Assembly: GCA_040954595.2 (NCBI GenBank)
Contig: CM082586.2
Coordinates: 9,331,337 to 9,395,336, forward strand
Reading direction: 5' to 3'
DNA: 64,000 bases
Origin: Balanoglossus misakiensis
Lineage: Eukaryota; Animalia; Hemichordata
The notes under the pieces were generated by a model. It saw nothing but the letters and a program-made list of their open reading frames with translations. It was not told where the DNA came from and did no database searches. Position numbers and translations under genes: made by a program. Position 1 is the first letter of the stretch; every line of letters starts with the position of its first letter. This document shows, piece after piece, positions 11,764-41,100 of this stretch.

Positions 11764-11800
<37 letters not shown>

Positions 11801-11819: not shown

Positions 11820-11851
<32 letters not shown>

Positions 11852-14900: not shown

Positions 14901-15459
14901 TCATTTTTCTCTTATTTATTATTTGGACCTGGTAATTAGCTTACCTTGAATGATATTGATTATTCAACCTGATTTGGTGTCTTATTCTTGCAATAACAAA
15001 CACAAACCTCTACTGTTGTCAACCTTTTATTTATTTAAGATAAACCTTTCAGTTGAATCATTGCTTGTTTGAAAGCAGCCTTTATTGAAGTTATCTCTTT
15101 ATTTTTATGCACATTATAGGTCTCTGACCACTTAAAACATAACTTCTATGTCTGATTTTCTTATCTATCTTTACTCGGTACAATATATCTGGTTTGGCTG
15201 ATATATCACCCAATGGCCATACAAACTTTTGTCATTTAATTATGTCACATACTAGTACATATCCAAAACACAAAACATCTATGGCCCTCTTATTATTAGG
15301 CATACAATTTGCTTAAGTATAACAACCTGTAAAGTGTTTCAACATACCAAATACAAATACTTTATCTGCTCTGAAAGTCGAGATTTGGAAAAATAAGACA
15401 AGGTCACCCCAGGGACAAGGCTGAACCTACTATGGATGCTGATATATACGAACGAAAAT

Positions 15460-16070: not shown

Positions 16071-16343
16071 CTGAGGTCAAAGGGGTCATGAAAAGTAGCA
16101 AAATATTTTAATCACACACTAATCCACATACATCAAAAACCAAACGTCTAGCCCTATTGGTTAGCCTGGAATTAGATATGCAGAAAAATGATGCGTCAAA
16201 AGTAGGTCAAAGGTCATTGCCAAAATTACCAAAATATTTATAGCTTATTCTTGGCATATGATGATTCATATCCATAAAAAGAATTTCTGTGCTATCAATT
16301 TTTAGGCTAGAAAGGGAATTTTTACTTTTTAATCGTTTTTTAC

Positions 16344-16830
16344 AAAATCCAATATGGCCGCCATAATCTTCGACCAATCACATTCCTCATCGCAAACTTG
16401 ATAGACATCTGTTTAATGACCACACACACCAAATCTTGTGACTCGGTTATCGCTGGTTCTTGAGAAGAAGATTTTTGAAATTTTACTAGGGTTTTTCGAA
16501 AATCCAATATGGCCGCCATAATCTTCGACCAATCACAATGATCTTCGCAAACTTGATAGACCTCAGTTTGGTGACCACATACCCCAAACCGCGTGACTCG
16601 GTTATTGCCGGTTCTGGAGAAGAAGATTTTTGAAATTTTGACCAGATTTCAGAAAAACAACTGTAGCAAAAAAACTGCAACATTGACAGCAAAATATCCA
16701 ATTACAAAAATGATGGGCAGAAGGTACACTACCAGCACACCAAATCTGAAGTCGATCTGACTTGTAGTTTCTGAGATCTGAGATTTGCTTTTTTTCAGAA
16801 AATCCAATATGGCCGCCATGTCACGTGACT
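16344..16830. repeat. ~150-155-bp internal subrepeat (AAAATCCAATATGGCCGCC...) of the elements
   Basis: Motif at 16344, 16499 and 16799 with a diverged intermediate copy; the same layout is present in every unit. Confidence 0.8.
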
Positions 16831-16971
16831 AATTAAAAATTCAAGAGTTCAATGCACGACTACCCATTGACCTTGACCACTGTAGCAAGTTTGAGAAGTG
16901 TACCTGCAGCGGTGTCTGAGATCTAGAGCGACAAAGAAATGACACAAGAAAAAAGAAAGAAAGAAAGACAG

Positions 16972-17025
16972 AAAAACCCCAACGAAACCAATAGGGCCCA
17001 AGCGCTGGTATGCGCTTGGGCCCTA
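16972..17025. repeat. Terminal hairpin cap (14-bp stem, 6-nt loop) containing the subterminal inverted repeat
   Basis: TAGGGCCCAAGCGC tggtat GCGCTTGGGCCCTA at 16992-17025, preceded by the conserved AAAAACCCCAACGAAACCAA. Confidence 0.9.
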
Positions 17026-20000
17026 AAGAAAGACTGAATTAAAGCTGCAAGCAGCATTGTCCGGGCCCAAGCTCTATTATCTGATCTGATTATTAGATAT
17101 GCACATAATTAATGAGTAGAAACATAATGCTGTGTTTTATCCCATGAAATATCATGGTTATATCTATGTTTAGTGCTGATAAAGTGTTAAGTAGGTCAAA
17201 GGTCACCCAGAGGTCACCCATAATTTGGGCAGAAAATTTTGACCCATAGTGGTCCATGTCCAACAAAAACCAGACCTATAGCACTTTTGGTTAGCCCGGA
17301 ATTAAGTATGCACATAAATAATGAGTTAAGCAGGTGTCACAGGTGACCCACAACTTTGGCTTTTCATTATGGCCCCATACCTCCAAACGCCAAGGCTGTA
17401 TCTGCTGTGGATGCTGATATTTGCAAAAGTAGGTCAAAGGTCACCAGAGGTCACCCAACATTTGGGTAAAATTTTTTGACCCCATACTAGTCCTGTCCAA
17501 CAAAAACAAAACCTCTAGGTCTATTGGTTCGCCTGTAATTAGCTATGCACATAATTAATGAGGTCAGCAGGGGTCAAAGGGGTCGTGAAAAGTAGCAAAA
17601 AATTTTGATCACACACTTATCCACATACATCAAAAACCAAACTTATAGCCCTATTGGTTAGCCTGGAATTAGATATGCAGAAAAATGATGCGTCAAAAGT
17701 AGGTCAAAGGTCATTGCCAAAATTACCAAAATATTTATAGCATATTGTAGTCATATGATGATCCATATCCATAAAAAGAATTTCTGTGCTATCAATTTTT
17801 AGGCTAGAAAGGGAATTTTTACTTTTTAATCGTTTTTCACAAAATCCAATATGGCCGCCATAATCTTCGACCAATCACATTCCTCTTCGCAAACTTGATA
17901 GACATCTGGTGAATGACCACACACACAAAATCTTGTGACTCGGTTATCACCGGTTCTCGAGAAGAAGATTTTTGAAATTTTACTAGGGTTTTTCGAAAAT
18001 CCAATATGGCCGCCATAATCTTCGACCAATCACAATGATCTTCGCAAACTTGATAGACATCAGTTAGGTGACCACATACCCCAAACCCCGTGTCTCGGTT
18101 ATCACCGGTTCTAGAGAAGAAGATTTTTGAAATTTAAGCCAGATTTCAGAAAAAAAATTGTAGCAAAAAAACTGCAACATTGACAGCATAATTTCCAATT
18201 ACAAAAATGTTTGACAGAAGGTAGTCTACCTGCACGCCAAATTTGAAGTCGATCTGACTTGTAGTTTCTGAGATCTGAGATTTGCATTTTTTCAGAAAAT
18301 CCAAGATGGCCGCCAGGTCATGTGACTAATTAAAAATTCATGGGTTCAATGCACGACTACTCATTGACCTTGACCACTGTAGCAAGTTTGAGAACTGTAC
18401 CTGCAGTGGTGTCTGAGATCTAGAGCGACAAAGAAATGACAGAAGAATAAAGAAAGAAGAAAGAAAGACAGATTAAAGCTGCAAGCAGCATTGTCCGGGC
18501 CCAAGCTCTATTATCTGATCAGATTATTAGATATGCACATAATTAATGAGTAGAAACATAATGCTGTGTTTTATCCCACGAAATATCAAGGTTATATCTA
18601 TGTTTGGTGTTGATATAGTGTTAAGTAGGTCAAAGGTCACCCAGAGGTCACCCACAATTTGGGCAGAAAATTTTGACCCATAGTGGTCCATGTCCAACAA
18701 AAACCAGACCTCTATCCCTTTTGGTTAGCCCAGAATTAGGTATGCACATAAATAATGAGTTAAGCAGGTGTCACAGGTGACCCAAAACTTTGGCTTTTCA
18801 TTATGGCCCCATACCTCCAAACGCCAGGGCTGTATCTGCTGTGGATGTCGAGATATGCAAAAGTAGGTCAAAGGTCATCCGAGGTCACCCAACATTTGGG
18901 CAAAAAAATTTGACCCAATACTGGTTCATGTCCAACAAAAACCAAACCTCTAGGTCTATTGGTTCATCTGTAATTAGGTATGCGCATATTTAATGAGGTC
19001 AGCAGAGGTCAAAGGGGTCATGAAAAGTAGCGAAATTTTTTGATTGCATACAAATCCACATACATCAAAAACCAAACTTATAGCCCTATTAGTTAGCCTG
19101 GAATTAGATATGCAGAAAAATGATGTGTCAAAAGTAGGTCAAAGGTCATTGTCAAAATTACCAAAATATTTATAGCTTATTCTTGGCATATGATGATTCA
19201 TATCCATAAAAAGAATTTCTGTGCTATCAATTTTTAGGCTAGAAAGGGAATTTTTACTTTTTAATCGTTTTTCACAAAATCCAATATGGCCGCCATAATC
19301 TTCGACCAATCACATTCACCTTCGCAAACTTGATAGACATCTGTTTAATGACCACACACACCAAATCTTGTGACTCAGTTATCGCCGGTTCTTGAGAAGA
19401 AGATTTTTGAAATTTTACTAGGGTTTTTCGAAAATCCAATATGGCCGCCATAATCTTCGACCAATCACAATGATCTTCGCAAACTTGATAGACCTCACTT
19501 AGGTGACCACATACCCCAAACCACGTGACTCGGTTATTGCCGGTTCTGGAGAAGAAGATTTTTGAAATTTTGACCAGATTTCAGAAAAAAAATTGTAGCA
19601 AAAAAACTGCAACATTGACAGCAAAATATCCAATTACAAAAATGATGGGCAGAAGGTACACTACCAGCACACCAAATCTGAAGTAAATCTGACTTGTAGT
19701 TTCTGAGATCTGAGATTTGCATTTTTTCAGAAAATCCAATATGGCCGCCATGTCACGTGACTAATTAAAAATTCAAGAGTTCAATGCACGACTACCCATT
19801 GACCTTGACCACTGTAGCAAGTTTGAGAAGTGTACCTGCAGCGGTGTCTGAGATCTAGAGCGACAAAGAAATGACAGAAGAATAAAGAAAGAAGGAAAGA
19901 CAGAATTAAAGCTGCAAGCAGCATTGTCCGGGCCCAAGCTCTATTATCTGATCTGATATTAGATATGCACATAATTAATGAGTTGAAACATAATGCTGTT

Positions 20001-23000
20001 TTATCCCATGAAATATCAAGGTTATATGTATGTTTGGTGCTGTTAAAGTGTTAAGTAGGTCAAAGGTCACCCAGAGGTCACCCAACATTTGGGCAGAAAA
20101 TTTTGACCCATAGTGGTCCATGTCCAACAAAAACCAGACCTCTAGCCCTTTTTGTTAGCCTGGAATTAGGTATGCACATAAATAATGCGTAAAGCAGGTG
20201 TCACAGGTGACCCAAAACTTTGGCTTTTCATTATGGCCCCATACCTCCAAATGCCAAGGCTGTACCTGCTTTGGATGCCGAGATATGCAAAAGTACGTCA
20301 AAGGTCATCTGAGGTCATCCAAAATTTGGGCAGAAAATTTTGACCCATAGTGGTCCATGTCCAACAAAAAACAGACCTCTAGCCCTTTTGGTTAGCCTAG
20401 AATTAGGTATGCACATAATTAATGAGTTAAGCAGGTGTCACAGGTGACCCAAAACTTTGGCTTTTCATTATGGCCCCATACCTCCAAACGCCAAGGCTGT
20501 ATCTGCTGTGGATGTCAAGATATGCAAAAGTAGGTCAAAGGTCACCCGAGGTCACCCAACATTTGGGCAAAATATTTTGACCCCATACTGGTCCATGTAT
20601 AACAAAAACAAAACTTCTAGGTCTATTGGTTCATCTGTAATTAGGTATGTGCATATTTAATGAGGTCACCAGAGGTCAATGGGGTCATGAAAAATAGCAA
20701 AATTTTTGGATCACATAGAAATCCACATACATCAAAAACCAAACTTATAGCCCTATTGGTTAGCCTGGAATTAGATATGCAGAAAAATCATGTGTCAAAA
20801 GTAGGTCAAAGGTCATTGCCAAAATTACCAAAATATTTATAGCTTATTCTTGGCATATGATGATTCATATCCGTAAAAATAATTTCTGTGCTATCAATTT
20901 TTAGGCTAGAAAGGGAATTTTTACTTTTTAATCATTTTTCACAAAATCCAATATGGCCGCCATAATCTTCGACCAATCACATTCCTCTTCGCAAACTTGA
21001 TAGACATCTGTTTAATGACCACACACACCAAATCTTGTGACTCAGTTATCGCCGGTTCTTGAGAAGAAGATTTTTGAAATTTTACTATGGTTTTTCGAAA
21101 ATCCAATATGGCCGCCATAATCTTCAACCAATCACAATGATCTTCGCAAACTTGATAGACATCAGTTAGGTGACCACATACCCCAAACCGCATGACTCGG
21201 TTATCACCGGTTCTGGAGAAGAAGATTTTTGAAATTTAAGCCAGATTTCAGAAAAAAAATTGTAGCAAAAAATTGCAACTTTGTCAGTATAATTTCCAAT
21301 AACAAAAATGATTGCCAGAAGGTAGTCTACCAGCATGCCAAATTTGAAGTCGATCTGACTTGTAGTTTCTGAGATCTTTGATTTGCATTTTTTCAGAAAA
21401 TCCAAGATGGCCGCCAGGTCATGTGACTAATTAAAAATTCAAGGGTTCAATGCACGACTACTCATTGACCTTGACCACTGTAGCAAGTTTCAGAAGTGTA
21501 CCTGCAGCGGTGTCTGAGATCTCGTGGGTCAAAGAATTGACACAAGAATAAAGAAAGAAAGAAAGAAAAATTCCAACGAAACCAATACGGGCCCAAGCCT
21601 GGCTTGGCTTGGGCCCGTAAAAACCCCAACGAAACCAATAGGGCCCAAGCGCTGGTATGCGCTTGGGCCCTAATTAAAGCTGCAAGCAGCATTGTCCGGG
21701 CCCAAGCTCTATTATCTGATCTGATTATTAGATATGCACATAATTAATGAGTAGGAACATAATGCTGTGTTTTATCCCATGAAATATCAAGGTTATATCT
21801 ATGTTTGGTGTTGATATAGTGTTAAGTAGGTCAAAGGTCACCCAGAGGTCACCCACAATTTGGGCAGAAAATTTTGACCCATAGTGGTCCATGTCCAACA
21901 AAATCCAGATCTCTAGCCCTTTTGGTTAGCCCGAAATTAGGTATGCACATAAATAATGAGTTAAGCAGGTGTCACAGGTGACCCAAAACTTTGGCTTTTC
22001 ATTATGGCCCCATACCTCCAAACGCCAAGGCTGTATCTGCTGTGGATGTCGAGATATGCAAAAGTAGGTCAAAGGTCATCCGAGGTCACCCAACATTTGG
22101 GCAAAAAAATTTGACCCAATACTGGTTCATGTCCAACAGAAACCAAACATCTAGGTCTATTGGTTCATCTGTAATTAGGTATGCGCATATTTAATGAGGT
22201 CAGCAGAGGTCAAAGGGGTCATGATAAGTAGCGAAATTTTTTGATCACATACAAATCCACATACATCAAAAACCAAAATCATAGCCCTATAGGTTAGCCT
22301 GGAATTAGATATGCAGAAAAAAATGATGTGTCAAAAGTAGGTCAAAGGTCATTGCCAAAATTACCAAAATATTTGGGGTAGGTCCTGGCAGGGATGATAC
22401 CAATGTGCACAAAAATCAGAACTCTGGTACATTTAGAACACGCAGTATGAGCTATATATGCATATATGCAGGTTCTTAAAAAAGTAGGTCAAAGGTCATG
22501 TGAAAATTTCCAAAATATTTGCAACATATTCTAGTCATATCAAGACTCATATCCATAAAAAGAATGTGTATGCTATCTATTTTTAGACTAGAAATATGAT
22601 TTCTTAATTTTCGCTGGTTTTTACAAAATCCAATATGGCCGCCATAATCTTCGACCAATCACAACGCTCTTCGCAAACTTGATAGACATCAGTTAGGTGA
22701 TGTCATACCCTAAATCCCATGACTCGGTTATTGCCGGTTCTGGAGAAGAAGATTTTTGAAGATTTTACTGTACTTTTTCGAAAATCCAATATGGCGGCCA
22801 AAGTCACGTGACCGCTCAGGATTTTATTGTCAAACTTTGAAGGGCAGAGGACATGTGTACCATACACCAAATTTGAACTTGATTGGCCCTGTGGTTTTTG
22901 AGAAGAAGCCATTTAAAGATTTTCAGAAAATCCAATATGGCCGCCAGGTCACGTGACTAATTAAATATTCACAAGCCACTGCACATCTACTCATTGACCT

Positions 23001-26000
23001 TGACCACTGTAGCAAGTTTGAGAAGTGTACCTGTAGCCATTTCAGAGATCTAGGAGAGCAAAGATTGACATAAGAATAAAGAAAGATTAAAGCTGCAAGC
23101 AGCATTGTCCGGGCCCAAGCTCTATTATCTGATCTGATTATTAGATATGCACATAATTAATGAGTACAAACATAATGCTGTGTTTTACCCCATAAAATAT
23201 CAAGGTTATATCTATGCTTGGTGTTGATATAGTGTTAAGTAGGTCAAAGGTCACCCAGAGGTCACCCACAATTTGGGCAGAAAATTGTGACCCATAGTAG
23301 TCCATGTCCAACAAAAACCAGATATCTAGCCCTTTTGGTTAGCCCAGAATTAGGTATACACATAAATAATGAGTAAGCAGGTGTCACAGGTGACCCAAAA
23401 CTTTGGCTTTTCATTATGGCCCCATACCTCCAAACGCCAAGGCTGTATCTGCTGTGGATGTCAAGATATGCAAAAGTAGGTCAAAGGTCACCCGAGGTCA
23501 CCCAACATTTGGGCAAAATAGTTTCACCCCATACTGGTCCATGTATAACAAAAACAAAACCTCTAGGTCTATTGGTTCACCTGTAATTAGGTATGTGCAT
23601 ATTTAATGAGGTCAACAGAGGTCAAAGGGGTCATGAAAAGTAGCAACATTTTTTGATCACATACAAATCCACATACATCAAAAACCAAACTTATAGCCCT
23701 ATTGGTTAGCCTGGAATTAGATATGCAGAAAAATGATGCGTCAAAAGTAGGTCAAAGGTCATTGCCAAAATTACCAAAATATTTATAGCTTATTCTTGGC
23801 ATATGATGATTCATATCCATAAAAAGAATTTCTGTGCTATCAATTTTTAGGCTAGAAAGGGAATTTTTTCTTTTTAATCGTTTTTCACAAAATCCAATAT
23901 GGCCGCCATAATCTTCGACCAATCACATTCCCCTTCGCAAACTTGATAGACATCTGTTTAATGACCACACACACCAAATCTTGTGACTCGGTTATCGCCG
24001 GTTCTTGAGAAGAAGATTTTTGAAATTTTACTAGGGTTTTTCGAAAATCCAATATGGCCGCCGTAATCTTCGACCAATCACAATGATCTTCGCAAACTTG
24101 ATAGACATCAGTTAGGTGACCACATACCCTAAACCCCGTGTCTCGGTTATCACCGGTTCTGGAGAAGAAGATTTTTGAAATTTAAGCCAGATTTCAGAAA
24201 AAAAATTGTAGCAAAAAAACTGCAACTTTGTCAGCATAATTTCCAATTACAAAAATGATTGACAGAAGGTAGTCTACCTGCAGGCCAAATTTGAAGTCGA
24301 TCTGACTTGTAGTTTATGAGATCTGAGATTTGCATTTTTTCAGAAAATCCAATATGGCCGCCAGGTCACGTGACTAATTAAAAATTCATGGGTTCAATGC
24401 ACGACCACTCATTGACCTTGACCACTGTAGCAAGTTTGAAAACTGTACCTGCAGTGGTGTCTGAGATCTAGAGCGACAAAGAATTGACATAAGAATAAAG
24501 AAAGAAAGAAAGAAAGACTGAAAAATACCAACGAAACCAATAGGGCCCAAGCCTGGCTTGGCTTGGGCCCTAAAAAATTCCAACGAAACCAATACGGGCC
24601 CAAGCCTGGCTTGGCTTGGGCCCGTAATTAAAGCTGCAAGCAGCATTGTCCGGGCCCAAGCTCTATTATCTGATCTGATTATTAGATATGCACATAATTA
24701 ATGAGAAGAAACATAATGCTGTGTTTTATCCCACGAAATATCAAGGTTATATCTATGTTTGGTGTTGATATAATGTTAAGTAGGTCAAAGGTCACCAAGA
24801 GGTCACCCACAATTTGGGCAGAAAATTTTGACCCATAGTGGTCCATGTCCAACAAAAACCAGACCTCTAGCCCTCTTGGTTAGCCTGGAATTAGGTATGC
24901 ACATAATTAATGAGTTAAGCAGGTGTCACAGGTGACCCAAAACTTTGGCTTTTCATTATGGCCCCATACCTCCAAACGCCAAGGCTGTATCTGCTGTGGA
25001 TGTCGAGATATGCAAAAGTAGGTCAAAGGTCACCCCAGGTCACCCAACATTTGGGCAAAATATTTTGACCCCATACTGGTCCATGTATAACAAAAACAAA
25101 ACCTCTAGGTCTATTGGTTCATTTGTAATTAGGTATGTGCATATTTAATGAGGTCAGCAAAGGTCAAAGGGGTCATGAAAAGTAGCAAAAATTTTTGATC
25201 ACATACAAATCCACATACATCAAAAACCAAACTTATAGCCCTATTGGGTAGCCTGGAATTAGATATGCAGAAAAATGATGCGTCAAAAGTAGGTCAAAGG
25301 TCATTGCCAAAATTACCAAAATATTTATAGCTTATTCTTGGCATATGATGATTCATATCCATAAAAAGAATGTCTGTGCTATCAATTTTTAGGCTAGAAA
25401 GGGAATTTTTACTTTTTAATCGTTTTTCACAAAATCCAATATGGCCGCCATAATCTTCGACCAATCACATTCCTCTTCGCAAACTTGATAGACATCTGTT
25501 CAATGACCACACACACCAAATCTTGTGACTCGGTTATCGCCGGTTCTTTAGAAGAAGATTTTTGAAATTTTACTAGGGTTTTTCGAAAATCCAATATGGC
25601 CGCCATAATCTTCGACCAATCACAATGATCTTCGCAAACTTGATAGACCTCAGTTTGGTGACCACATACCCCAAACCGCGTGACTCGGTTATCTCCGGTT
25701 CTGGAGAAGAAGATTTTTGAAATTTTGACCAGATTTCAGAAAAACAAATGTAGCAAAAAAACTGCAACATTTACAGCAAAATATCCAATTACAAAAATGA
25801 TGGGCAGAAGGTACACTACCAGCACACCAAATCTGAAGTCGATCTGACTTGTAGTTTCTGAGATCTGAGATTTACATTTTTTCAGAAAATCCAATATGGC
25901 CGCCATGTCACGTGACTAATTAAAAATTCAAGAGTTCAATGCACGACTACTCATTGACCTTGACCATTGTAGCAAGTTTGAGAAGTGTACCTGCAGAGGT

Positions 26001-26054
26001 GTCTGAGATCTAGAGCGACAAAGAAATGACACAAGAAAAAAGAAAGAAAGACAG

Positions 26055-26266
26055 AAAAACCCCAACGAAACCAATAGGGCCCAAGCGCTGGCTTGCGCTT
26101 GGGCCCTAAAAAACCCCAACAAAACCAATAGGGCCCAAGCGCTGGTATGCGCTTGGGCCCTAAAAATACCAACGAAACCAATAGGGCCCAAGCCTGGCTT
26201 GGCTTGGGCCCTAAAAACCCCAACGAAACCAATAGGGCCCAAGCGCTGCTATGCGCTTGGGCCCTA
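26055..26266. repeat. Stack of four terminal hairpin caps
   Basis: Caps end at 26108, 26162, 26213 and 26266 and differ in loop or leader. The stack is duplicated at ~38963-39174. Confidence 0.92.
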
Positions 26267-27700
26267 ATTAAAGCTGCGAGCAGCATTGTCGGGCCCAAGC
26301 GCTGATCTTGAATTATATATGCACAGTATGAATGAGAAGAAACAGAATTTTCCATCGGATGTATTATCTCATGACATAACAAGGATGTGTGTATTTTTGC
26401 TGCTGAAATAGGGTGAAGTAGGTCAAAGGTCACCTAAGGTCACCCAACATTTGGGCAATTTTTTTTTACCCATACTGGTCCATGTCCAACAAAAACCAAA
26501 ACTCTAGCTCTTTTGGTTCGGATGTAATCAGGTATGTGCATATTTAATGAGGTCAGCAGGTGTCACAGGTGACCCAAAAATGTGGCTTTACATTCTGGTC
26601 CCATCCTACAAAATGCCATGGCTGTATCTGCTCTAGATGCTGAGATATGCGAAAGTAGGTCAAAGGTCACCAGAGGTCACCCAACATTTGGGCAAAAAAT
26701 TTTGATCCCATACTGGTCCATGTCCAACAAAAACCAAACCTCTAGCTCTATTGGTTCGCCTGTAATTAGCTATGTACATAATTAATGAGGTCAGCAGAGG
26801 TCAAAGGGGTCATGAAAAGTAGCAAAATATTTTGATCACACACTAATCCACATGCATCAAAAACCAAAAGTCTAGCCCTATAGGTTAGCCTGGAATTAGA
26901 TATGCAGAAATAATAACGCATGATAAGTAGGTCAAAGGTCATGTGAAAAATCGCCAAAAATTTGTAACATATTTTAGTCATATGATGATTGATATCCATG
27001 AAAAGAATTTGTATGCTGTCAATTTTTAGACTAGGAAAAGGAATTCCAATTTTTCACTGCTTTTTACAAAATCCAATATGGCCGCCATAATCTTCAACCA
27101 ATCACAATGCTCTTTGCAAACTTGATAGACATCAGTGTTGTGACCATACTCCCCGAATCTTGCGACTCAGTTATCGCCCGTTCTGGAGAAGAAGATTTTT
27201 GCAGTTTTACTATGGTTTTTCGAAAATCCAATATGGCCGCCATAATCTTCGACCAATCACAATGCTTCTTATCAAACTTGATAGACATCAGTTAGGTGAC
27301 CACATACCCCAAACCGCGTCACTCGGTTATCACCGGTTCTGGAGAAGAAGATTTTTGAAATTTAAGCCAGATTTCAGAAAAAAAATTGTAGCAAAAAAAC
27401 TGCAACATTTACAGCAAAATATCTAATTACAAAAATGATGGGTAGAAGGTAGACTACCTGCACACCAAATTTGAAGTCGATCTGACTTGTAGTTTCTGAG
27501 ATCTGAGATTTGCATTTTTTCAGAAAATCCAATATGGCCGCCATGTCACGTGACTAATTAAAAATTCAAGAGTTCAATGCACGACTACCCATTGACCTTG
27601 ACCACTGTAGCAAGTTTGAGAAGTGTACCTGCAGCGGTGTCTGAGATCTAGAGCGACAAAGAAATGACACAAGAATAAAGAAAGAAAGAAAGAAAGACAG

Positions 27701-29201
27701 ATTAAAGCTGCAAGCAGCATTGTCCGGGCCCAAGCTCTATTATCTGATCAGATTATTAGATATGCACATAATTAATGAGTAGAAACATAATGCTGTGTTT
27801 TATCCCATGAAATATCAAGGTTATATCTATGTTTGGTGTTGATATAGTGTTAAGTAGGTCAAAGGTCACCCAGAGGTCACCCACAATTTGGGCAGAAAAT
27901 TTTGATCCATAGTGGTCCATGTCCAACAAAAACCAGACCTCTAGCCCTTTTGGTTAGCCCGGAATTAGGTATGCACATAAATAATGAGTTAAGCAGGTGT
28001 CAAAGGTGACCCAAAACTTTGGCTTTTCATTATGGCCCCATACCTCCAAACGCCAAGGTTGTATCTGCTGTGGATGTCGAGATATGTAAAAGTAGGTCAA
28101 AGGTCACCCGAGGTCACCCAACATTTGGGCAAAATATTTTGACCCCATACTGGTCCATGTATAACAAAAACAAAACCTCTAGGTCTATTGGTTCATCATT
28201 AATTAGGTATGCGCATATTTAATGAGGTCACCAGAGGTCAAAGGGGTCATGAAAAGTAGCAACATTTTTTGATCACATACAAATCCACATACATCAAAAA
28301 CCAAACTTATAGCCCTATTGGTAAGCCTGGAATTAGATATGCAGAAAAATGATGCGTCAAAAGTAGGTCAAAGGTCATTGCCAAAATTACCAAAATATTT
28401 ATAGCTTATTCTTGTCATATGATGATTCATATCCATAAAAAGAATTTCTGTGCTATCAATTTTTAGGCTAGAAAAGGAATTTTTACTTTTTAATCGTTTT
28501 TCACAAAATCCAATATGGCCGCCATAATCTTCGACCAATCACATTCCCCTTTGCAAACTTGATAGACACCTGTTTAATGACCACACACACCAAATCTTGT
28601 GACTCGGTTATCACCCGTTCTTGAGAAGAAGATTTTTGAAGTTTTACTATGGTTTTTCGAAAATCCAATATGGCCGCCATAATCTTCGACCAATCACAAT
28701 GATCTTCGCAAACTTGGTAGACATCAGTTAGGTGACCACATACCCCAAACCGCGTGACTCAGTTATCACCGGTTCTGGAGAAGAAGATTTTTGAAAATTA
28801 AGCCAGATTTCAGAAAAAAAATTGTAGCAAAAAAACTGCAACATTTACAGCAAAATATCCAATTACAAAAATGATGGGTAAAAGGTAGACTACCTGCACA
28901 CCAAATTTGAAGTCGATCTGACTTGTAGTTTCTGAGATCTGAGATTTGCATTTTTTCAGAAAATCCAATATGGCCGCCAGGTCACGTGACTAATTAAAAA
29001 TTCACAGGTTCAATGCACGACTACTCATTGACCTTGACCACTGTAGCAAGTTTCAGAAGTGTACCTGCAGCGGTGTCTGAGATCTAGAGCGACAAAGAAT
29101 TGACACAAGAATAAAGAAAGAAAGAAAGAAGAAAGAAGGAAAGACAGAAAAACCCCAACGAAACCAATAGGGCCCAAGCGCTGGTATGCGCTTGGGCCCT
29201 A
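27701..29201. mobile_element. Complete uninterrupted subfamily-A non-autonomous element (reference copy, 1501 bp)
   Basis: Starts ATTAAAGCTGCAAGCAGCATTGTCCGGGCCCAAGCTC and ends with the GAAA tract plus AAAAACCCCAACGAAACCAA-TAGGGCCCAAGCGC-tggtat-GCGCTTGGGCCCTA. Confidence 0.88.
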
Positions 29202-32200
29202 ATTAAAGCTGCAAGCAGCATTGTCCGGGCCCAAGCTCTATTATCTGATCTGATATTAGATATGCACATAATTAATGAGTAGAAACATAATGCTGTTTCA
29301 TCCCATGAAATATCAAGGTTATATCTATGTTTGGTGCTGTTAAAGTAGGTCAAAGGTCACCCAGAGGTCACCCAACATTTGGGCAGAAAATTTTGACCCA
29401 TAGTGGTCCATGTCCAACAAAAACCAGACCTCTAGCCCTTTTGGTTAGCCTGGAATTAGGTATGCACATAAATAATGCGTAAAGCAGGTGTCACAGGTGA
29501 CCCAAAACTTTGGCTTTTCATTATGGCCCCATACCTCCAAATGCCAAGGCTGTACCTGCTTTGGATGCCGAGATATGCAAAAGTACGTCAAAGGTCATCT
29601 GAGGTCATCCAAAATTTGGGCAGAAAATTTTGACCCATAGTGGTCCATGTCCAACAAAAACCAGACCTCTAGTCCTTTTGGTTAGCCCAGAATTAGGTAT
29701 GCACATAAATAATGAGTTAAGCAGGTGTCACAGGTGACCCAAAACTTTGGCTTTTCATTATGGCCCCATACCTCCAAACGCCAGGGCTGTATCTGCTGTG
29801 GATGTCGAGATATGCAAAAGTAGGTCAAAGGTCATCCGAGGTCACCCAACATTTGGGCAAAAAAATTTGACCCAATACTGGTTCATGTCCAACAAAAACC
29901 AAACCTCTAGGTCTATTGGTTCATCTGTAATTAGGTATGCGCATATTTAATGAGGTCAGCAGAGGTCAAAGGGGTCATGAAAAGTAGCGAAATTTTTTGA
30001 TTGCATACAAATCCACATACATCAAAAACCAAACTTATAGCCCTATTAGTTAGCCTGGAATTAGATATGCAGAAAAATGATGTGTCAAAAGTAGGTCAAA
30101 GGTCATTGTCAAAATTACCAAAATATTTATAGCTTATTCTTGGCATATGATGATTCATATCCATAAAAAGAATTTCTGTGCTATCAATTTTTAGGCTAGA
30201 AAGGGAATTTTTACTTTTTAATCGTTTTTCACAAAATCCAATATGGCCGCCATAATCTTCGACCAATCACATTCACCTTCGCAAACTTGATAGACATCTG
30301 TTTAATGACCACACACACCAAATCTTGTGACTCAGTTATCGCCGGTTCTTGAGAAGAAGATTTTTGAAATTTTACTAGGGTTTTTCGAAAATCCAATATG
30401 GCCGCCATAATCTTCGACCAATCACAATGATCTTCGCAAACTTGATAGACCTCAGTTAGGTGACCACATACCCCAAACCACGTGACTCGGTTATTGCCGG
30501 TTCTGGAGAAGAAGATTTTTGAAATTTTGACCAGATTTCAGAAAAAAAATTGTAGCAAAAAAACTGCAACATTGACAGCAAAATATCCAATTACAAAAAT
30601 GATGGGCAGAAGGTACACTACCAGCACACCAAATCTGAAGTAAATCTGACTTGTAGTTTCTGAGATCTGAGATTTGCATTTTTTCAGAAAATCCAATATG
30701 GCCGCCATGTCACGTGACTAATTAAAAATTCAAGAGTTCAATGCACGACTACCCATTGACCTTGACCACTGTAGCAAGTTTGAGAAGTGTACCTGCAGCG
30801 GTGTCTGAGATCTAGAGCGACAAAGAAATGACAGAAGAATAAAGAAAGAAGGAAAGACAGATTAAAGCTGCAAGCAGCATTGTCCGGGCCCAAGCTCTAT
30901 TATCTGATCTAATTATTAGATATGCACATAATTAATGAGTAGAGACATAATGCTGTGTCTTATGCCATGAAATATCAAGGTTATATCTATGTTTTGTGGT
31001 GATATAGTGTTAAGTAGGTCAAAGGTCACCCAGAGGTCAACCACAATTTGGGCAGAAAATTTTGACCCATAGTGGTCCATGTCCAACAAAAACCAGACCT
31101 CTAGCCCTTTTGGTTATCCCGGAATTAGGTATGCACATAAATAATGAGTTAAGCACGTGTCACAGGTGACCCAAAACTTTGGCTTTTCATTATGGCCCCA
31201 TACCTCCAAACGCCAAGGCTGTATCTGCCGTAGATGTCGAGATATGCAAAAGTAGGTCAAAGGTCACCCGAGGTCACCCAACATTTGGGCAAAATATTTT
31301 GACCCCATACTGGTCCATGTATAACAAAAACAAAACCTCTAGGTCTATTGGTTCATCATTAATTAGGTATGCGCATATTTAATGAGGTCACCAGAGGTCA
31401 AAGGGGTCATGAAAAGTAGCAAAATTTTTTGATCACATACAAATCCACATACATCAAAAACCAAACTTATAGCCCTATTGGTTAGCCTGGAATTAGATAT
31501 GCAGAAAAATGATGCGTCAAAAGTAGGTCAAAGGTCATTGCCAAAATTACCAAAATATTTATAGCTTATTCTTGTCATATGATGTTTCATATCCGTAAAA
31601 AGAATTTCTGTGCTATCAATTTTTAGGCTAGAAAGGGAATTTTTACTTTTTAATCGTTTTTCACAAAATCCAATATGGCCGCCATAATCTTTGACCAATC
31701 ACATTCCTCTTCGCAAACTTGATAGACATCTGTTTAATGACCACACACATCAAATCTTGTGACTCAGTTATCGCCGGTTCTTGAGAAGAAGATTTTTGAA
31801 ATTTTACTAGGTTTTTTTTTAAATCCAATATGGCCGCCATAATCTTTGACCAATCACAATGATCTTCGCAAACTTGATAGACCTCAGCTTGGTGACCACA
31901 TACCCCAAACCGCGTGACTCGGTTATTGCCGGTTGTGGAGAAGAAGATTTTTGAAATTTTGACCAGATTTCAGAAAAACAACTGTAGCAAAAAAACTGCA
32001 ACATTGACAGCAAAATATCCAATTACAAAAATGATGGGCAGAAGGTAGACTACCTGCACACCAAATTTGAAGTCGATCTGACTTGTAGTTTCTGAGATCT
32101 GAGATTTGCATTTTTTCAGAAAATCCAATATGGCCGCCATGTCACGTGACTAATTAAAAATTCAAGAGTTCAATGCACGACTACCCATTGACCTTGACCA

Positions 32201-33810
32201 TTGTAGCAAGTTTGAGAAGTGTACCTGCAGCGGTGTCTGAGATCTAGAGCGACAAAGAAATGACAGAAGAATAAAGAAAGAAAGACAGAAAAACCCCAAC
32301 GAAACCAATAGGGCCCAAGCGCTGGTATGCGCTTGGGCCCTAAAAAACCCCAACGAAACCAATAGGGCCCAAGCGCTGGTATGCGCTTGGGCCCTAATTA
32401 AAGCTGCAAGCAGCATTGTCCGGGCCCAAGCTCTATTATCTGATCTGATTATTAGATATGCACATAATTAATGAGTAGGAACATAATGCTGTGTTTTATC
32501 CCATGAAATATCAAGGTTATATCTATGTTTGGTGTTGATATAGTGTTAAGTAGGTCAAAGGTCACCCAGAGGTCACCCACAATTTGGGCAGAAAATTTTG
32601 ACCCATAGTGGTCCATGTCCAACAAAATCCAGATCTCTAGCCCTTTTGGTTAGCCCGAAATTAGGTATGCACATAAATAATGAGTTAAGCAGGTGTCACA
32701 GGTGACCCAAAACTTTGGCTTTTCATTATGGCCCCATACCTCCAAACGCCAAGGCTGTATCTGCTGTGGATGTCGAGATATGCAAAAGTAGGTCAAAGGT
32801 CATCCGAGGTCACCCAACATTTGGGCAAAAAAATTTGACCCAATACTGGTTCATGTCCAACAGAAACCAAACATCTAGGTCTATTGGTTCATCTGTAATT
32901 AGGTATGCGCATATTTAATGAGGTCAGCAGAGGTCAAAGGGGTCATGATAAGTAGCGAAATTTTTTGATCACATACAAATCCACATACATCAAAAACCAA
33001 AATCATAGCCCTATAGGTTAGCCTGGAATTAGATATGCAGAAAAAAATGATGTGTCAAAAGTAGGTCAAAGGTCATTGCCAAAATTACCAAAATATTTGG
33101 GGTAGGTCCTGGCAGGGATGATACCAATGTGCACAAAAATCAGAACTCTGGTACATTTAGAACACGCAGTATGAGCTATATATGCATATATGCAGGTTCT
33201 TAAAAAAGTAGGTCAAAGGTCATGTGAAAATTTCCAAAATATTTGCAACATATTCTAGTCATATCAAGACTCATATCCATAAAAAGAATGTGTATGCTAT
33301 CTATTTTTAGACTAGAAATATGATTTCTTAATTTTCGCTGGTTTTTACAAAATCCAATATGGCCGCCATAATCTTCGACCAATCACAACGCTCTTCGCAA
33401 ACTTGATAGACATCAGTTAGGTGATGTCATACCCTAAATCCCATGACTCGGTTATTGCCGGTTCTGGAGAAGAAGATTTTTGAAGATTTTACTGTACTTT
33501 TTCGAAAATCCAATATGGCGGCCAAAGTCACGTGACCGCTCAGGATTTTATTGTCAAACTTTGAAGGGCAGAGGACATGTGTACCATACACCAAATTTGA
33601 ACTTGATTGGCCCTGTGGTTTTTGAGAAGAAGCCATTTAAAGATTTTCAGAAAATCCAATATGGCCGCCAGGTCACGTGACTAATTAAATATTCACAAGC
33701 CACTGCACATCTACTCATTGACCTTGACCACTGTAGCAAGTTTGAGAAGTGTACCTGTAGCCATTTCAGAGATCTAGGAGAGCAAAGATTGACATAAGAA
33801 TAAAGAAAGA

Positions 33811-36800
33811 ATTAAAGCTGCAAGCAGCATTGTCGGGCCCAAGCGCTGATCCGGTATTATATATGCACAGTATGAATGAGAAGAAACAGAATGCTCTATC
33901 GGGTGTTTTATCTCATGACGTAACAAGGACGTATGTATTTTTCCTACTGAAATAGAGTAAAGTAGGTCAAAGGTCACCTGAGGTCACCCAACATTTGGGC
34001 AAAATTTTTTGACCCATACTGTTCCATGTCCAACAAAAACCAAAACTCTAGTTCTATTGGTTCGCCTTTAATTAGGTACGTGCATATTTAATGAGGTCAG
34101 CAGGTGTCACAGGTGACTTAAAAATGTGGCTTTACATTGCTATTTGACATGTAAATTATGGTCTGAACGGAATAGTAAATTAAAAAAAAACGCAGAAACA
34201 CTATTACACCAATTCACTGCGTATAAGAATTAAATGGGTGTGTGAACATATTACTTATTCATTTGTATAGTAGACCATTTACAGGAAGCACACATTGTGT
34301 ATTTCTTTATTGCAATGATTTACAAGTAATCTTATGATTTTTTTCTGTATTTGTTTCTGATACAAAACCTGCCGTTAGTTGTATCATTACCGTTTGGCAG
34401 AAGCCTTTTACTGTAATCACATCTTTACTAAATTGTACATTATAGGTCACTGACCACTCAAAACAATGTCTGTGTCTGATTTCCTTTGTTCCATGTACTC
34501 TGTATATAGAATCTCATTTGGAAGATGCTCTGGATACCATGGTATGGAAAAGTGAAATATATTTGTTCCATACTAGTCCTATTTAGTTAATCCCAAATTT
34601 GCCATGCATACAAATTACGAGGTAAAGGATACCTAGAGATGGTGAAATCAGTGTGGGATTATCGGATGGTCAAACAAAATTTGTCAGAATTGTTTGATCC
34701 AAGAATGGTCCATGCACATGTCCCACATACACCAGACTTATAACCTTTTGCTTTGCCTGGAATAAGGTGTGTGTATAAAGTGTAGGTCTTCATCACATGT
34801 TCCGTCACTCAAAATGACAAGTCTGTATCTGTTCTGGATGCTGAGATGGGAATATGGGTGATAGGTCACTCCAAATTTCTACCCATTCTTGTGCATGTCC
34901 ACAAAAAGGACTTCTAGACCTATCAATTGGCCTAAAATAAGATGTGTACAAAGTGCAAGACTCCATCAGGTCTTCCAACCCTCCAAATGCCAAGAATATA
35001 TCTCCTCTAGATGCCTAGATGTGGTAAAATAGGTCAAAGGTCACCAAGAGGTCACCCAGATTTCCTCAAAAAATGTTTGATACCAAACTTCCATGTGCCA
35101 TGCCCCAGAAAAATCAGTCTTTTAGCTCTATTTGTAAGCCTAGAATTACCTATGTGCACAGTTAATGAGTTAATTAAACACCATTACCACCACTCTAAAT
35201 GCCAAAGCTTTATCTACATGTACTGTAGATGCCGAGATATGTGGGACAGTTGGTCAAGGGTAACTCAGAGGTCACCAAGATTTCGTCAAAAATGTTTGAG
35301 CTCATGCTGGCCCGAGTCCAACAAAAATCAAACATCTAGCTTAATTTGGTTGTCTGGAATTATATATGCACATAATTAATGATCAAATGTGTATGACTCA
35401 GTCATGTGTTCCATCCCTCAAAATGCCAAGGCGGTATCTGCTCTGGACGCCGAGATATGGGAAAGTAGGTCACCTGAGGTTACTGAAATTTGGGTAAATT
35501 TTATTGACCCCAAACAGGTTCATGTCCAACAAAAAAACAGACCTGTAGCCCAATTGGCTTGCCTGGAATTAGGTATGCACATGATAAATAAGTTAAGCAG
35601 GTGTTACAGGTCCAAACCCTCCAAACACCAAACACTGTATCTGCTCTGGATGCCGAGATAGCGAAATTTAGGTCAAAGATCACCCGAGGTCACTCGAAAT
35701 ATGGGCAAAAAAATTTGACCCCATACTGGTCCATGTCCAATAACAAGCAAAACTCTAGCTCTATTGGTTCGCCTGTAATTAGGTATGTGCATATTGAATG
35801 AGGTCAGCAGGTGTCACAGGTGACCCAAAAATTTGGCTTTACATTTTGGTCCCATCCTGCCAAATGCCAAGGCTGTATCTGCTCTGGATGCTGAGATATG
35901 CGAAAGTGGGTCAAAGGTCACCTGAGATCACCAAACATTTGGGCAAAATTTTTTGACCCATACTGGTCCATGTCAAACAAAAACTAAAACTCTAGCTCTA
36001 TTGGTTCGCCTGTAATTAGGTATGTGCATATTTAATGAGGTCAGCAGGTGTCACAGGTGACCCAAAAATGTGGCTGTACATTTTTGCCCCATCCTGCCAA
36101 ATGCCAAGGCTGTATCTGCTCTGGATGCTGAGATATGCGAAAGTGGGTCTAAGGTCACCTGAGGTCACCAAACATTTGGGCAAAATTTTTTGACCCATAC
36201 TGGTCCATGTCAAACAAAAACTAAAACTCTAGCTCTATTGGTTCGCCTGTAATTAGGTATGTGCATATTTAATGAGGTCAGCAGGTGTCACAGGTGACCC
36301 AAAAATGTGGCTGTACATTTTGGCCCCATCCTGCCAAATGCCAAGGCTGTATCTGCTCTGGATGCTGAGATATGCGAAAGTAGGTCAAAGGTGACCAGAG
36401 GTCACCCAACATTTGGGCAAAAAATTTTGTTCCCATAGTGGTCCATGTCCAACAAAAACCAAATCTCTAGCTCTATTGGTTCGCCTGTAATTAGCTATGT
36501 GCATAATTAATGAGGTCAGCAGAGGTCAAAGGGGTCATGAAAAGTAGCAAAATATTTTGATCACACACTAATCCACATGCATCAAAAACCAAACGTCTAG
36601 CCCTATAGGTTAGCCTGGAAATAGATATGCAGAAATAATAACGTGTGAAAAGTAGGTCAAAGGTCATGTGAAAAATCGCCAAAAAATTGTAACATAATTT
36701 AGTCACATGACGATTGATATCCATAAAAAGAGTTTGTATGCTATCAATTTTTACACTAGGAAAAGGAATTTCAATTTTTCACTGCTTTTTACATAATCCA

Positions 36801-37481
36801 ATATGGCCGCCATAATCTTCGACCAATCACAATGCTCTTTGCAAACTTGATAGACATCAGTGAAGTGACCAAACTCCCCGAATCTTGCGACTCAGTTATC
36901 GCCCGTTCTGGAGAAGAAGATTTTTTGAGTTTTACTATGGTTTTTCGAAAATCCAATATGGCCGCCATAATCTTCGACCAATCACAATGATCTTCGCAAA
37001 CTTGATAGACATCAGTTAGGTGACCACATACACCAAACCCCGTGTCTCGGTTATCACCGGTTCTGGAGAAGAAGATTTTTGAAATTTTGACCAGATTTAA
37101 GAAAAAAAATTGTGGCAAAAAAACTGCAACATTGACAGCATAATTTCCAATTACAAAAATGATGGGCAGAAGGTAGTCTACCTGCACGCCAAATTTGAAG
37201 TCGATCTGACTTGTAGTTTCTGAGATCTGAGATTTGCATTTTTTCAGAAAATCCAAGATGGCCGCCAGGTCATGTGACTAATTAAAAATTCAAGGGTTCA
37301 ATGCACGACTACTCATTGACCTTGACCACTGTAGCAAGTTTCAGAAGTGTACCTGCAGTGGTCTCTGAGATCTAGAGCGACAAAGAATTGACACAAGAAT
37401 AAAGAAAGAAAGAAGAAAGAAAGACAGAAAAACCCCAACGAAACCAATAGGGCCCAAGCGCTTGCTTGCGCTTGGGCCCTA
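33811..37481. mobile_element. Long (3671 bp) subfamily-B member with a unique interior, nested in the element starting at 32397
   Basis: Left terminus at 33811, non-repetitive interior ~34140-34640, degenerate then intact ~237-bp subrepeats, own cap ending at 37481. The host's AAAATTCC-type cap follows immediately. Confidence 0.8.
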
Positions 37482-40400
37482 AAAATTCCAACGAAACCAA
37501 TACGGGCCCAAGCCTGGCTTGGCTTGGGCCCGTAATTAAAGCTGCAAGCAGCATTGTCCGGGCCCAAGCTCTATTATCTGATCTGATTATTAGATATGCA
37601 CATAATTAATGAGAAGAAACATAATGCTGTGTTTTATCCCACGAAATATCAAGGTTATATCTATGTTTGGTGTTGATATAATGTTAAGTAGGTCAAAGGT
37701 CACCAAGAGGTCACCCACAATTTGGGCAGAAAATTTTGACCCATAGTGGTCCATGTCCAACAAAAACCAGACCTCTAGCCCTCTTGGTTAGCCTGGAATT
37801 AGGTATGCACATAATTAATGAGTTAAGCAGGTGTCACAGGTGACCCAAAACTTTGGCTTTTCATTATGGCCCCATACCTCCAAACGCCAAGGCTGTATCT
37901 GCTGTGGATGTCGAGATATGCAAAAGTAGGTCAAAGGTCACCCGAGGTCACCCAACATTTGGGCAAAATATTTTGACCCCATACTGGTCCATGTATAACA
38001 AAAACAAAACCTCTAGGTCTATTGGTTCATTTGTAATTAGGTATGTGCATATTTAATGAGGTCAGCAAAGGTCAAAGGGGTCATGAAAAGTAGCAAAAAT
38101 TTTTGATCACATACAAATCCACATACATCAAAAACCAAACTTATAGCCCTATTGGGTAGCCTGGAATTAGATATGCAGAAAAATGATGCGTCAAAAGTAG
38201 GTCAAAGGTCATTGCCAAAATTACCAAAATATTTATAGCTTATTCTTGGCATATGATGATTCATATCCATAAAAAGAATGTCTGTGCTATCAATTTTTAG
38301 GCTAGAAAGGGAATTTTTACTTTTTAATCGTTTTTCACAAAATCCAATATGGCCGCCATAATCTTCGACCAATCACATTCCTCTTCGCAAACTTGATAGA
38401 CATCTGTTCAATGACCACACACACCAAATCTTGTGACTCGGTTATCGCCGGTTCTTTAGAAGAAGATTTTTGAAATTTTACTATGGTTTTTCGAAAATCC
38501 AATATGGCCGCCATAATCTTCGACCAATCACAATGATCTTCGCAAACTTGATAGACCTCAGTTTGGTGACCACATACCCCAAACCGCGTGACTCGGTTAT
38601 CTCCGGTTCTGGAGAAGAAGATTTTTGAAATTTTGACCAGATTTCAGAAAAACAAATGTAGCAAAAAAACTGCAACATTTACAGCAAAATATCCAATTAC
38701 AAAAATGATGGGCAGAAGGTACACTACCAGCACACCAAATCTGAAGTCGATCTGACTTGTAGTTTCTGAGATCTGAGATTTGCATTTTTTCAGAAAATCC
38801 AATATGGCCGCCATGTCACGTGACTAATTAAAAATTCAAGAGTTCAATGCACGACTACTCATTGACCTTGACCATTGTAGCAAGTTTGAGAAGTGTACCT
38901 GCAGAGGTGTCTGAGATCTAGAGCGACAAAGAAATGACACAAGAAAAAAGAAAGAAAGACAGAAAAACCCCAACGAAACCAATAGGGCCCAAGCGCTGGC
39001 TTGCGCTTGGGCCCTAAAAAACCCCAACAAAACCAATAGGGCCCAAGCGCTGGTATGCGCTTGGGCCCTAAAAATACCAACGAAACCAATAGGGCCCAAG
39101 CCTGGCTTGGCTTGGGCCCTAAAAACCCCAACGAAACCAATAGGGCCCAAGCGCTGCTATGCGCTTGGGCCCTAATTAAAGCTGCGAGCAGCATTGTCGG
39201 GCCCAAGCGCTGATCTTGAATTATATATGCACAGTATGAATGAGAAGAAACAGAATTTTCCATCGGATGTATTATCTCATGACATAACAAGGATGTGTGT
39301 ATTTTTGCTGCTGAAATAGGGTGAAGTAGGTCAAAGGTCACCTAAGGTCACCCAACATTTGGGCAATTTTTTTTTACCCATACTGGTCCATGTCCAACAA
39401 AAACCAAAACTCTAGCTCTTTTGGTTCGGATGTAATCAGGTATGTGCATATTTAATGAGGTCAGCAGGTGTCACAGGTGACCCAAAAATGTGGCTTTACA
39501 TTCTGGTCCCATCCTACAAAATGCCATGGCTGTATCTGCTCTAGATGCTGAGATATGCGAAAGTAGGTCAAAGGTCACCAGAGGTCACCCAACATTTGGG
39601 CAAAAAATTTTGATCCCATACTGGTCCATGTCCAACAAAAACCAAACCTCTAGCTCTATTGGTTCGCCTGTAATTAGCTATGTACATAATTAATGAGGTC
39701 AGCAGAGGTCAAAGGGGTCATGAAAAGTAGCAAAATATTTTGATCACACACTAATCCACATGCATCAAAAACCAAAAGTCTAGCCCTATAGGTTAGCCTG
39801 GAATTAGATATGCAGAAATAATAACGCATGATAAGTAGGTCAAAGGTCATGTGAAAAATCGCCAAAAATTTGTAACATATTTTAGTCATATGATGATTGA
39901 TATCCATGAAAAGAATTTGTATGCTGTCAATTTTTAGACTAGGAAAAGGAATTCCAATTTTTCACTGCTTTTTACAAAATCCAATATGGCCGCCATAATC
40001 TTCAACCAATCACAATGCTCTTTGCAAACTTGATAGACATCAGTGTTGTGACCATACTCCCCGAATCTTGCGACTCAGTTATCGCCCGTTCTGGAGAAGA
40101 AGATTTTTGCAGTTTTACTATGGTTTTTCGAAAATCCAATATGGCCGCCATAATCTTCGACCAATCACAATGCTTCTTATCAAACTTGATAGACATCAGT
40201 TAGGTGACCACATACCCCAAACCGCGTCACTCGGTTATCACCGGTTCTGGAGAAGAAGATTTTTGAAATTTAAGCCAGATTTCAGAAAAAAAATTGTAGC
40301 AAAAAAACTGCAACATTTACAGCAAAATATCTAATTACAAAAATGATGGGTAGAAGGTAGACTACCTGCACACCAAATTTGAAGTCGATCTGACTTGTAG

Positions 40401-41100
40401 TTTCTGAGATCTGAGATTTGCATTTTTTCAGAAAATCCAATATGGCCGCCATGTCACGTGACTAATTAAAAATTCAAGAGTTCAATGCACGACTACCCAT
40501 TGACCTTGACCACTGTAGCAAGTTTGAGAAGTGTACCTGCAGCGGTGTCTGAGATCTAGAGCGACAAAGAAATGACACAAGAATAAAGAAAGAAAGAAAG
40601 AAAGACAGATTAAAGCTGCAAGCAGCATTGTCCGGGCCCAAGCTCTATTATCTGATCTGATATTAGATATGCACATAATTAATGAGTAGAAACATAATGC
40701 TGTTTCATCCCATGAAATATCAAGGTTATATCTATGTTTGGTGCTGTTAAAGTAGGTCAAAGGTCACCCAGAGGTCACCCAACATTTGGGCAGAAAATTT
40801 TGACCCATAGTGGTCCATGTCCAACAAAAACCAGACCTCTAGCCCTTTTGGTTAGCCTGGAATTAGGTATGCACATAAATAATGCGTAAAGCAGGTGTCA
40901 CAGGTGACCCAAAACTTTGGCTTTTCATTATGGCCCCATACCTCCAAATGCCAAGGCTGTACCTGCTTTGGATGCCGAGATATGCAAAAGTACGTCAAAG
41001 GTCATCTGAGGTCATCCAAAATTTGGGCAGAAAATTTTGACCCATAGTGGTCCATGTCCAACAAAAACCAGACCTCTAGCCCTTTTGGTTAGCCCGGAAT
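37482..41100. repeat. Part of a recent segmental duplication (37482-40608 copies 24574-27700, offset 12908)
   Basis: Identical short ORF translations at a constant offset (25573/38481, 25951/38859, 26582/39490, 27160/40068) with a few SNPs. The segment 40609-41100 matches 29202-29700. Confidence 0.9.

Follow-up and report, generated by a model that had tools for sequence, protein, structure and literature searches.

The 64,000-nucleotide stretch of Balanoglossus misakiensis DNA analysed here (the window; NCBI GenBank assembly GCA_040954595.2, contig CM082586.2, positions 9,331,337 to 9,395,336 of the forward strand) contains a nest of about 31 non-autonomous Helentron-type elements, inserted one into another in a single orientation at a target that the elements themselves carry. 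The nest probably arose by self-nesting at a target beside the 5' hairpins of its elements, with an 11-kb piece doubled by unequal crossover and at least four insertions added after the two copies had split. In window positions, which are used throughout, it occupies:

15416..64000, minus strand: nest of ~31 non-autonomous Helentron-type elements, recognized by 3' ends and 5' hairpins; it extends past the window end.

The units of the array are non-autonomous Helentron-type elements with HINE/DINE-1 anatomy, lying on the minus strand. Read on that strand, the 5' end is marked by a hairpin with a perfect 12–14-bp stem in 29 of the 30 cases, whose arms change together between subfamilies (z of −7.6 and −6.0 for the folding of two of them). 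It is followed by a run of five Ts and a CTTT-type microsatellite, as exemplified by:

29105..29201, minus strand: 5' zone of one element, with a 14-bp hairpin stem, the five-T run and the CTTT-type microsatellite that holds the insertion target.

Internal tandem repeats of 155 bp and 237 bp are found within the units. At the opposite end, a 10-bp subterminal repeat, GGGCCCAAGC, stands 23–24 bases from the 3' end (29/30 ends) and complements the outer arm of the 5' hairpin, and a palindrome with 5-bp arms is present at all 30 3' ends, weak as a fold (z of 0.8 and 1.6 against shuffles). Judged by frame length the array has no coding capacity, the longest stop-to-stop frame between 15.4 and 64 kb being 198 amino acids (aa).

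Self-comparison showed that related units of ~1.5 kb compose the window from ~15.4 kb to its end. This non-coding nest of ~48 kb holds 30 3' ends, 30 5' hairpins and one left-edge body without a 3' end, and all 3' ends and hairpins share a single orientation. Each of the 30 3' ends is placed after a microsatellite or A-run or after a hairpin; many bodies stand without a hairpin, and hairpins lie in piles of two to five. Hairpins can be paired with bodies in last-in-first-out order, and the subfamily-specific ends agree with this pairing: a single base distinguishes the hairpin that closes element 59243 from the hairpin of 53109, its closest relative. Strict pairing broke at three closings near 57.6–57.8 kb until one lost hairpin was assumed. 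Removal of the guest brings back the five-A run of the host at 10 sites and a microsatellite unit at three, these 13 being the testable sites among 18 nested ones; the same five-A run is found in 11/11 empty elements. At the remaining five nested sites the closing end lies beyond the window or was lost or displaced by the duplication described below. Unit pairs other than the twins of that duplication are 1–21% divergent and fall into several subfamilies.

One 5' hairpin appears to have been lost from the stack within 49995–57622, probably by slippage among 53-bp units, and the hairpin at 47099–47151 combines arms from two subfamilies, with a stem perfect for only 2 bp from its outer end, and is probably recombinant. 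The left edge of the nest (14307–17036) is cut, its first body lacking a 3' end, and patches at 14307–14408 and 15051–15162 are 70–75% like the inner part of the long element E described below. The outer hosts of hairpins 26162 and 26213 have no body in the window. Elements 27702, 47154, 56069 and 62094 make up the whole of the youngest-looking subfamily (1.0–2.7% apart), and their hosts are all of the second 3'-end type; by hand tally this subfamily accounts for 4/9 guests in such hosts versus 0/17 otherwise (Fisher p 0.008, post hoc).

The insertion target is sharply defined. When the three twin copies and the chimera are set aside, 26 non-redundant 3' ends remain, 18 of them nested and eight exactly head-to-tail; none lies in an element body, and all 26 events fall on one strand within a zone of <100 bp. 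In 11 empty elements, the last 100 bp contain only 10.6% of same-strand TT sites and the bodies 89%. The placement of 18/18 nested ends in the 5' zone has a probability of about 3e-18 under a TT null and 2e-9 when only TTTC sites are counted, although strict independence of the events does not hold. Each of the 18 nested 3' ends comes directly after the motif T^(T)CWKTCTTT (minus strand) in the host's own 5' microsatellite. This motif is present in 2–5 copies per 5' zone in 11/11 empty elements; it does not occur on the same strand of the 11 bodies (one copy lies on the other strand) or in positions 1–15400. The motif was derived from these same sites, and the independent evidence it provides is its absence elsewhere.

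Exactly two T/A are added per element, with no target duplication, at 13/13 testable sites. The bond used is T^T in 18/18 cases if both Ts come from the 5' end, or T^T in 10 and T^C in eight if each end supplies one; for Helitron2 the target has been given as T(T/C) (PMC13085455). One T per end, combined with a second insertion at the same bond, would produce a hairpin-to-3'-end joint with two As, and 12/12 such joints have exactly two. Site choice by the motif itself and site choice by an enzyme bound at the adjacent hairpin are both compatible with this locus.

A first-pass annotation of the window had placed a tandem duplication at ~18700–29700 and ~29700–41100, with a shared backbone at offsets of 10957, 10724 and 12908. 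Exact-match runs bear out the backbone, the offsets and the tandem arrangement, add a fourth diagonal at 11407, and move the limits to the following, inside the larger nest that runs from 15416 to beyond 64000:

18717..29672, no strand: duplication copy 1, from exact-match runs.
29674..41079, no strand: duplication copy 2, from exact-match runs.

There is one substitution on diagonal 10957 (18717–19904), none on 10724 (21619–23086), three on 12908 (24573–27701) and none on 11407 (29202–29672 = 40609–41079). The common backbone of 6,256 bp therefore differs by 4 substitutions and no indels (0.064%), in keeping with the description of the copies as separated by scattered single-nucleotide polymorphisms (SNPs), and the twins are far outside the family background of 1–21% between unit pairs. 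The hosts concerned are:

18472..21672, minus strand: host X, with a body to 19904 and its own 5' hairpin at 21619–21671; parent of the right part of the chimera.
40609..42268, minus strand: host Y, a body; parent of the left part of the chimera, hosting a deep nest to its right.
29202..32396, minus strand: chimeric host K, left part from Y and right part from X, with a hairpin at 32342–32395.
21673..24626, minus strand: host Z, of a divergent subfamily 14–21% from other units, with a hairpin at 24572–24625.
32397..37534, minus strand: host Z', with a body identical to that of Z.
24627..26108, minus strand: element V, with a target empty in both copies; its twin is 37535–39016.
26108..26266, minus strand: three stacked 5' hairpins of outer hosts, two without a body in the window; their twin is 39016–39174.
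26267..27700, minus strand: host W, body only; its identical twin is 39175–40608.
29613..29688, no strand: crossover interval, narrowed to 29673–29688 if X base 18715 is old.

The unit at 29202 had been taken for the crossover chimera, and it matches unit 40609 through 29672 and unit 18472 from 29689. Its parents X and Y are 3.7% divergent and differ by one 237-bp subrepeat, and the switch between them takes no more than 76 bp, within the 237-bp subrepeats and well away from the ends of the element. Neither parent has the base found at 29673, which is unique among 20 homologous columns; X base 18715, at the homologous neighbouring position, is also private. These two private bases place the substitution count at 4 to 6 and the crossover within 29613–29688. 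A duplication made by the transposase was rejected, as the crossover is internal to a unit; the 11-kb piece was likely doubled, very recently, by one unequal homologous crossover.

The two copies differ in the elements that they contain:

19905..21619, minus strand: insert A in X, 1,715 bp, A-phase 2+5, itself empty.
30861..32342, minus strand: insert D in K, 1,482 bp, A-phase 1+6.
23086..24572, minus strand: insert B in Z, 1,487 bp, A-phase 1+6.
33811..37481, minus strand: insert E in Z', 3,671 bp, a long variant of the second 3'-end type, A-phase 2+5.
27701..29201, minus strand: element C, 1,501 bp, in copy 1 only; a gain or a loss.

The coordinates and sizes of the inserts, their one-base spacing and the agreement of the 2184-bp difference with the change in offset, all noted at first pass, were reproduced. 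Size differences of −233 (A/D) and +2,184 (B/E) equal the offset steps, and the members of each pair sit one base apart within the same five-A run, the A total being conserved across phases. A and D are ~6% divergent, and B and E ~12% plus 2.2 kb. The partners differ to within 1 and 11 bases of their 5' ends, their phases differ on both sides, and the host flanks are identical for 406–1,468 bp up to the insert joints. These features imply either two post-split events per site or one replacement from a donor of the same host context, the best reading of A, B, D and E being four independent insertions made once the copies had split. None of the five differing elements carries a guest of its own, which is what young inserts should show. 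An arrangement in which both inserts of a pair were ancestral neighbours, one being lost from each copy, was rejected: A totals would be 6 or 8, and the idea otherwise needs a joint type seen in 0/12 cases. Co-descent of all host/C-family pairs as composites is likewise disfavoured, the guests being less diverged than their hosts and two intact sites differing in phase.

The first-pass count of about five independent insertions thus stands for four, by virtue of their divergence, phases and identical flanks, and the fifth, element C, may be a gain or a loss. The further statement that the insertions came after the duplication holds in the sense that they came after the two copies split; an inter-allelic crossover would give the same picture. 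Element C is present in copy 1 only, as had been reported, its 1,501 bp equalling 12908 − 11407, and a gain in copy 1 and a loss from copy 2 are near even. It is empty and adjoins the motif, and a recombinational loss would be confined to the last 48 bp, although equally long identical runs add up to 393 bp, all of which favour a gain; a loss is favoured by the strict T^T rule, under which Y would be the younger neighbour.

The twins constitute a built-in clock, with 4–5 events set against 4–6 substitutions. With 3–8 target sites, the rate of insertion per site is ~500–2,600 times the per-base substitution rate (95% bounds across cases of 108 to 13,137), and hits on the twin hotspots probably outnumber mutations of any one base by a factor of hundreds to thousands. 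The twin sites and the motif-restricted ends support the earlier suggestion of targeted insertion at shared hotspots at a high rate. The estimate is the same for copies that parted as duplicates and for copies that parted as alleles, and it would not hold had conversion erased differences from the backbone; the 400 bp on either side of each insert joint are free of substitutions, the opposite of the pattern expected of conversion stopping at inserts. At a constant per-element rate, the 26 events correspond to ~0.2% divergence.

An outside comparison was provided by three runs (X1–X3) assembled as contigs, all of one sample from one study that is probably not the source individual and may represent another population or species. 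The share of left-flank words is 0.49 in X1, 0.47 in X2 and 0.00 in X3, the values for X1 and X2 corresponding to ~2.3% divergence if uniform. Over 33050–35450, 22/30, 26/30 and 8/30 bins are covered, respectively. Parts common to the family reach summed depths of 10^4–10^6, which do not equal copy number, whereas E-specific pieces reach 17–19 in X2; this sample evidently contains the family in abundance. Three E-specific pieces across 34436–35160 match without any differing letter, and one X3 contig exits the element at 33810, at the same 3' boundary, into 255 other letters, which indicates a dispersed copy. The Z'/E joint is bridged by none of the listed X1–X3 pieces and 34184–34426 is uncovered, and the duplication is neither supported nor opposed by these data.

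We propose a model in which the Rep/helicase of a Helentron located elsewhere makes a copy of an element and attaches it immediately upstream of the pyrimidine repeat. Helitron transposases are known to copy a single strand and to form circles whose ends are joined precisely (PMC5876387). The motif in the 5' microsatellite of every element would survive at the 3' joint, keeping the old target and adding a new one. Empty hosts would turn nested, filled sites would gain exact head-to-tail neighbours, and the array would grow ever faster. The tandem copy and the chimera K would then stem from recombination between X and Y, which are ~96% identical. In agreement with the prediction of a retained target, in both informative independent sibling pairs (42270/44015 and 45440/47154) the copy beside the motif has no guest and the one next to it carries a deep nest; of the other pairs, one is a tie and the rest are uninformative. 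As a more speculative extension, on which we would place only limited trust, the family may be self-homing: by reading its own, never-destroyed target, one copy could seed exponential local growth into a large repeat block. If so, the whole 26-event nest would have formed within ~0.2% divergence, a tenth of the distance to the comparison sample, and nests would be private to single haplotypes, with a turnover far faster than point mutation.

Other histories could account for parts of these data. In the first, two homologues already carrying different inserts recombined, the insertions preceding the duplication. Unequal crossover between homologues would give the same chimera and the same insert pattern, and would reduce C to a simple presence/absence polymorphism; the twins are, however, 0.064% apart against ~2.3% to the comparison sample, and random alleles are seldom so close, which makes this history improbable. 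The events per unit divergence, and hence the rate, would be the same under it. Gene conversion offers a second route, which we also regard as unlikely: each site would have had one ancestral insert, replaced in one copy from a nest of the same context, for three post-split events in all. Donors would be plentiful in so abundant a family, conversion-like patches do separate 42270 from 49995, and the same two hosts are filled in both copies with V empty in both. This last coincidence has a chance of 1 in 3, given three empty hosts. Moreover, the tracts would have to span both joints yet spare 406–1,468 bp of host flank in a family that differs by several percent, and mixed joints would total 6 or 8 As, whereas all 10 five-A sites total 7.

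An assembly mis-join of two allelic haplotypes at 29673 is very doubtful. The private base at that position resembles a polishing error at a false joint, but the units joined are non-allelic, 3.7% and one 237-bp subrepeat apart, with a clean switch in at most 76 bp, and a homopolymer-rich backbone free of indels over 6,256 bp points to accurate reads, from which overlaps between such units would not be expected. Mis-joining and conversion were the two cases that the first-pass annotation had raised against its own account, and both are disfavoured on evidence internal to the window. It is scarcely credible that the array is a plain satellite or rolling-circle concatemer that gains and loses its 1.5-kb monomers through unequal exchange, with no targeted insertion. 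Head-to-tail Helitron arrays have been ascribed to rolling-circle replication (PMC5876387) and eight non-redundant joints here are exactly head-to-tail, but a concatemer should consist of near-identical head-to-tail units, and the neighbours here are nested, diverged by several percent up to 21% and drawn from several subfamilies. Hairpin-less bodies with stacks of up to five hairpins that close last-in-first-out with subfamily-matched ends, together with the restored host ends, contradict this reading.

Several observations weigh against self-nesting with crossover doubling and post-split insertion. Three of the 13 restored sites depend on assuming one lost hairpin near 50–57.6 kb, and the tandem arrangement itself rests on the assembly. 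The SNP-free joints are weak evidence (P 0.14). Patchwork exchange occurs in the family: of the substitutions between 42270–43959 and 49995–51680, 25 fall in one 500-bp block and 4 elsewhere, a patch that is likely due to conversion, and conversion of this kind could swap one insert for another or remove differences from the backbone. The nearest relatives of A, B, D and E in the window are 3.1–5.7% distant, with no near-identical donor there. A 1,270-bp block at the W/C joint differs from the 54640/56069 joint by 3 substitutions and a 5-base gap, a likeness that hints that C is older than the duplication. Lastly, no terminus is common to the array and the Helentron gene described next, which is at most a candidate for the source of the mobilising enzyme.

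An intact 2,438-aa stop-to-stop Helentron frame lies at 2867–10183 on the plus strand, opposite to the array and 5 kb away. It matches the Pfam families Helitron_like_N (2e-30), PIF1 (2e-26), DUF6570 (2e-20), Exo_endo_phos (7e-7) and OTU (6e-6), has RGSPH at Rep motif 2, where serine is diagnostic for Helentron, and includes a C-terminal apurinic/apyrimidinic endonuclease. A search of 1–15420 for the termini of the array yielded only one 10-mer with a mismatch and no blastn match under E 0.08. Just past the gene, 10325–10415 contains motifs at 10331 and 10390, which we take to be possibly a different, short HINE-like end and which may be the 3' end of the autonomous element. A 205-bp tandem array lies upstream of the gene (1268–2523), and in-frame repeats of 45 bp and 66 bp lie within the gene itself (2963–3257 and 4438–4725). 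The interval from the gene to the nest has long ATAA/ACAA and TGTA microsatellites (10906–11103 and 11766–11911), which hold no copy of the array family.

The array units share with HINE/DINE-1 elements, which are non-autonomous Helentrons (HLE2; Thomas et al. 2014, PMC4067079), and with the oyster Cg_HINE (PMC7492417) the 5' subterminal inverted repeat with its adjacent complement, a 4-base microsatellite, central tandem repeats, a 3' subterminal repeat, a 3' palindrome, a T-rich target without target duplication and a non-coding character. The subterminal repeat is 10 bp here and 11–15 bp in those reports, whose elements are dispersed at T-rich sites; the available portions of both mention neither a target in the element's own microsatellite nor a 30-element nest. 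A further likeness is to FoHeli, a Helitron2 of Fusarium that inserts near the 5' end of a sister copy to give stacked 5' termini, with 31–85 bp duplicated and up to five termini, taken as a sign of recent activity (PMC5148889; PMC13342296). FoHeli is fungal, with few elements per locus and mostly partial copies, whereas the nest described here keeps both bodies and hairpins, is many levels deep, and contains a twin segment that dates the events. Lepidopteran Helitron-like elements reportedly disrupt (GAAA)n, as the title of Coates et al. from 2010 has it, and the GAAA unit is the same as here. Tandem dimers in Drosophila are produced by double insertion at a preferred site and expanded by recombination (McGurk and Barbash 2018, PMC5932611), a similar course in that target preference makes tandems fast; their target is host DNA and is duplicated at the joint, in contrast to the element-borne, unduplicated target found here. 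Telomeric Helitrons of Paramecium, for which insertion into one strand of a simple repeat in one orientation has been proposed (PMC13085455), also use a host repeat, unlike the elements of this nest, which use their own. A frog element with two 5' ends in direct repeat is not termed a self-insertion in the available portions of its report (PMC11417382), shuffled Helitron loci have been reviewed for oyster (PMC12628747), and the available portions of PMC11934779 and PMC4344730 contain nothing on nesting targets.

The open literature, with subscription journals, Repbase/Dfam and supplements outside its scope, yielded self-insertion in Fusarium, no dated animal nest and no dated nest of this size. 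The nest bears on the open questions of how rolling-circle elements choose their targets and how dispersed elements become satellite-like blocks, and it points to a route to Helitron arrays other than rolling-circle concatemers. Target choice becomes testable, as motif and hairpin are separable by mutation, and annotators should be warned that such blocks resemble 1.5-kb satellites and are nests. The class of element and its tendency to self-insert were known from the systems above; what this locus adds is an unusual depth of nesting and an internal clock in the dated comparison of its twins, and the feature itself is real and well resolved.

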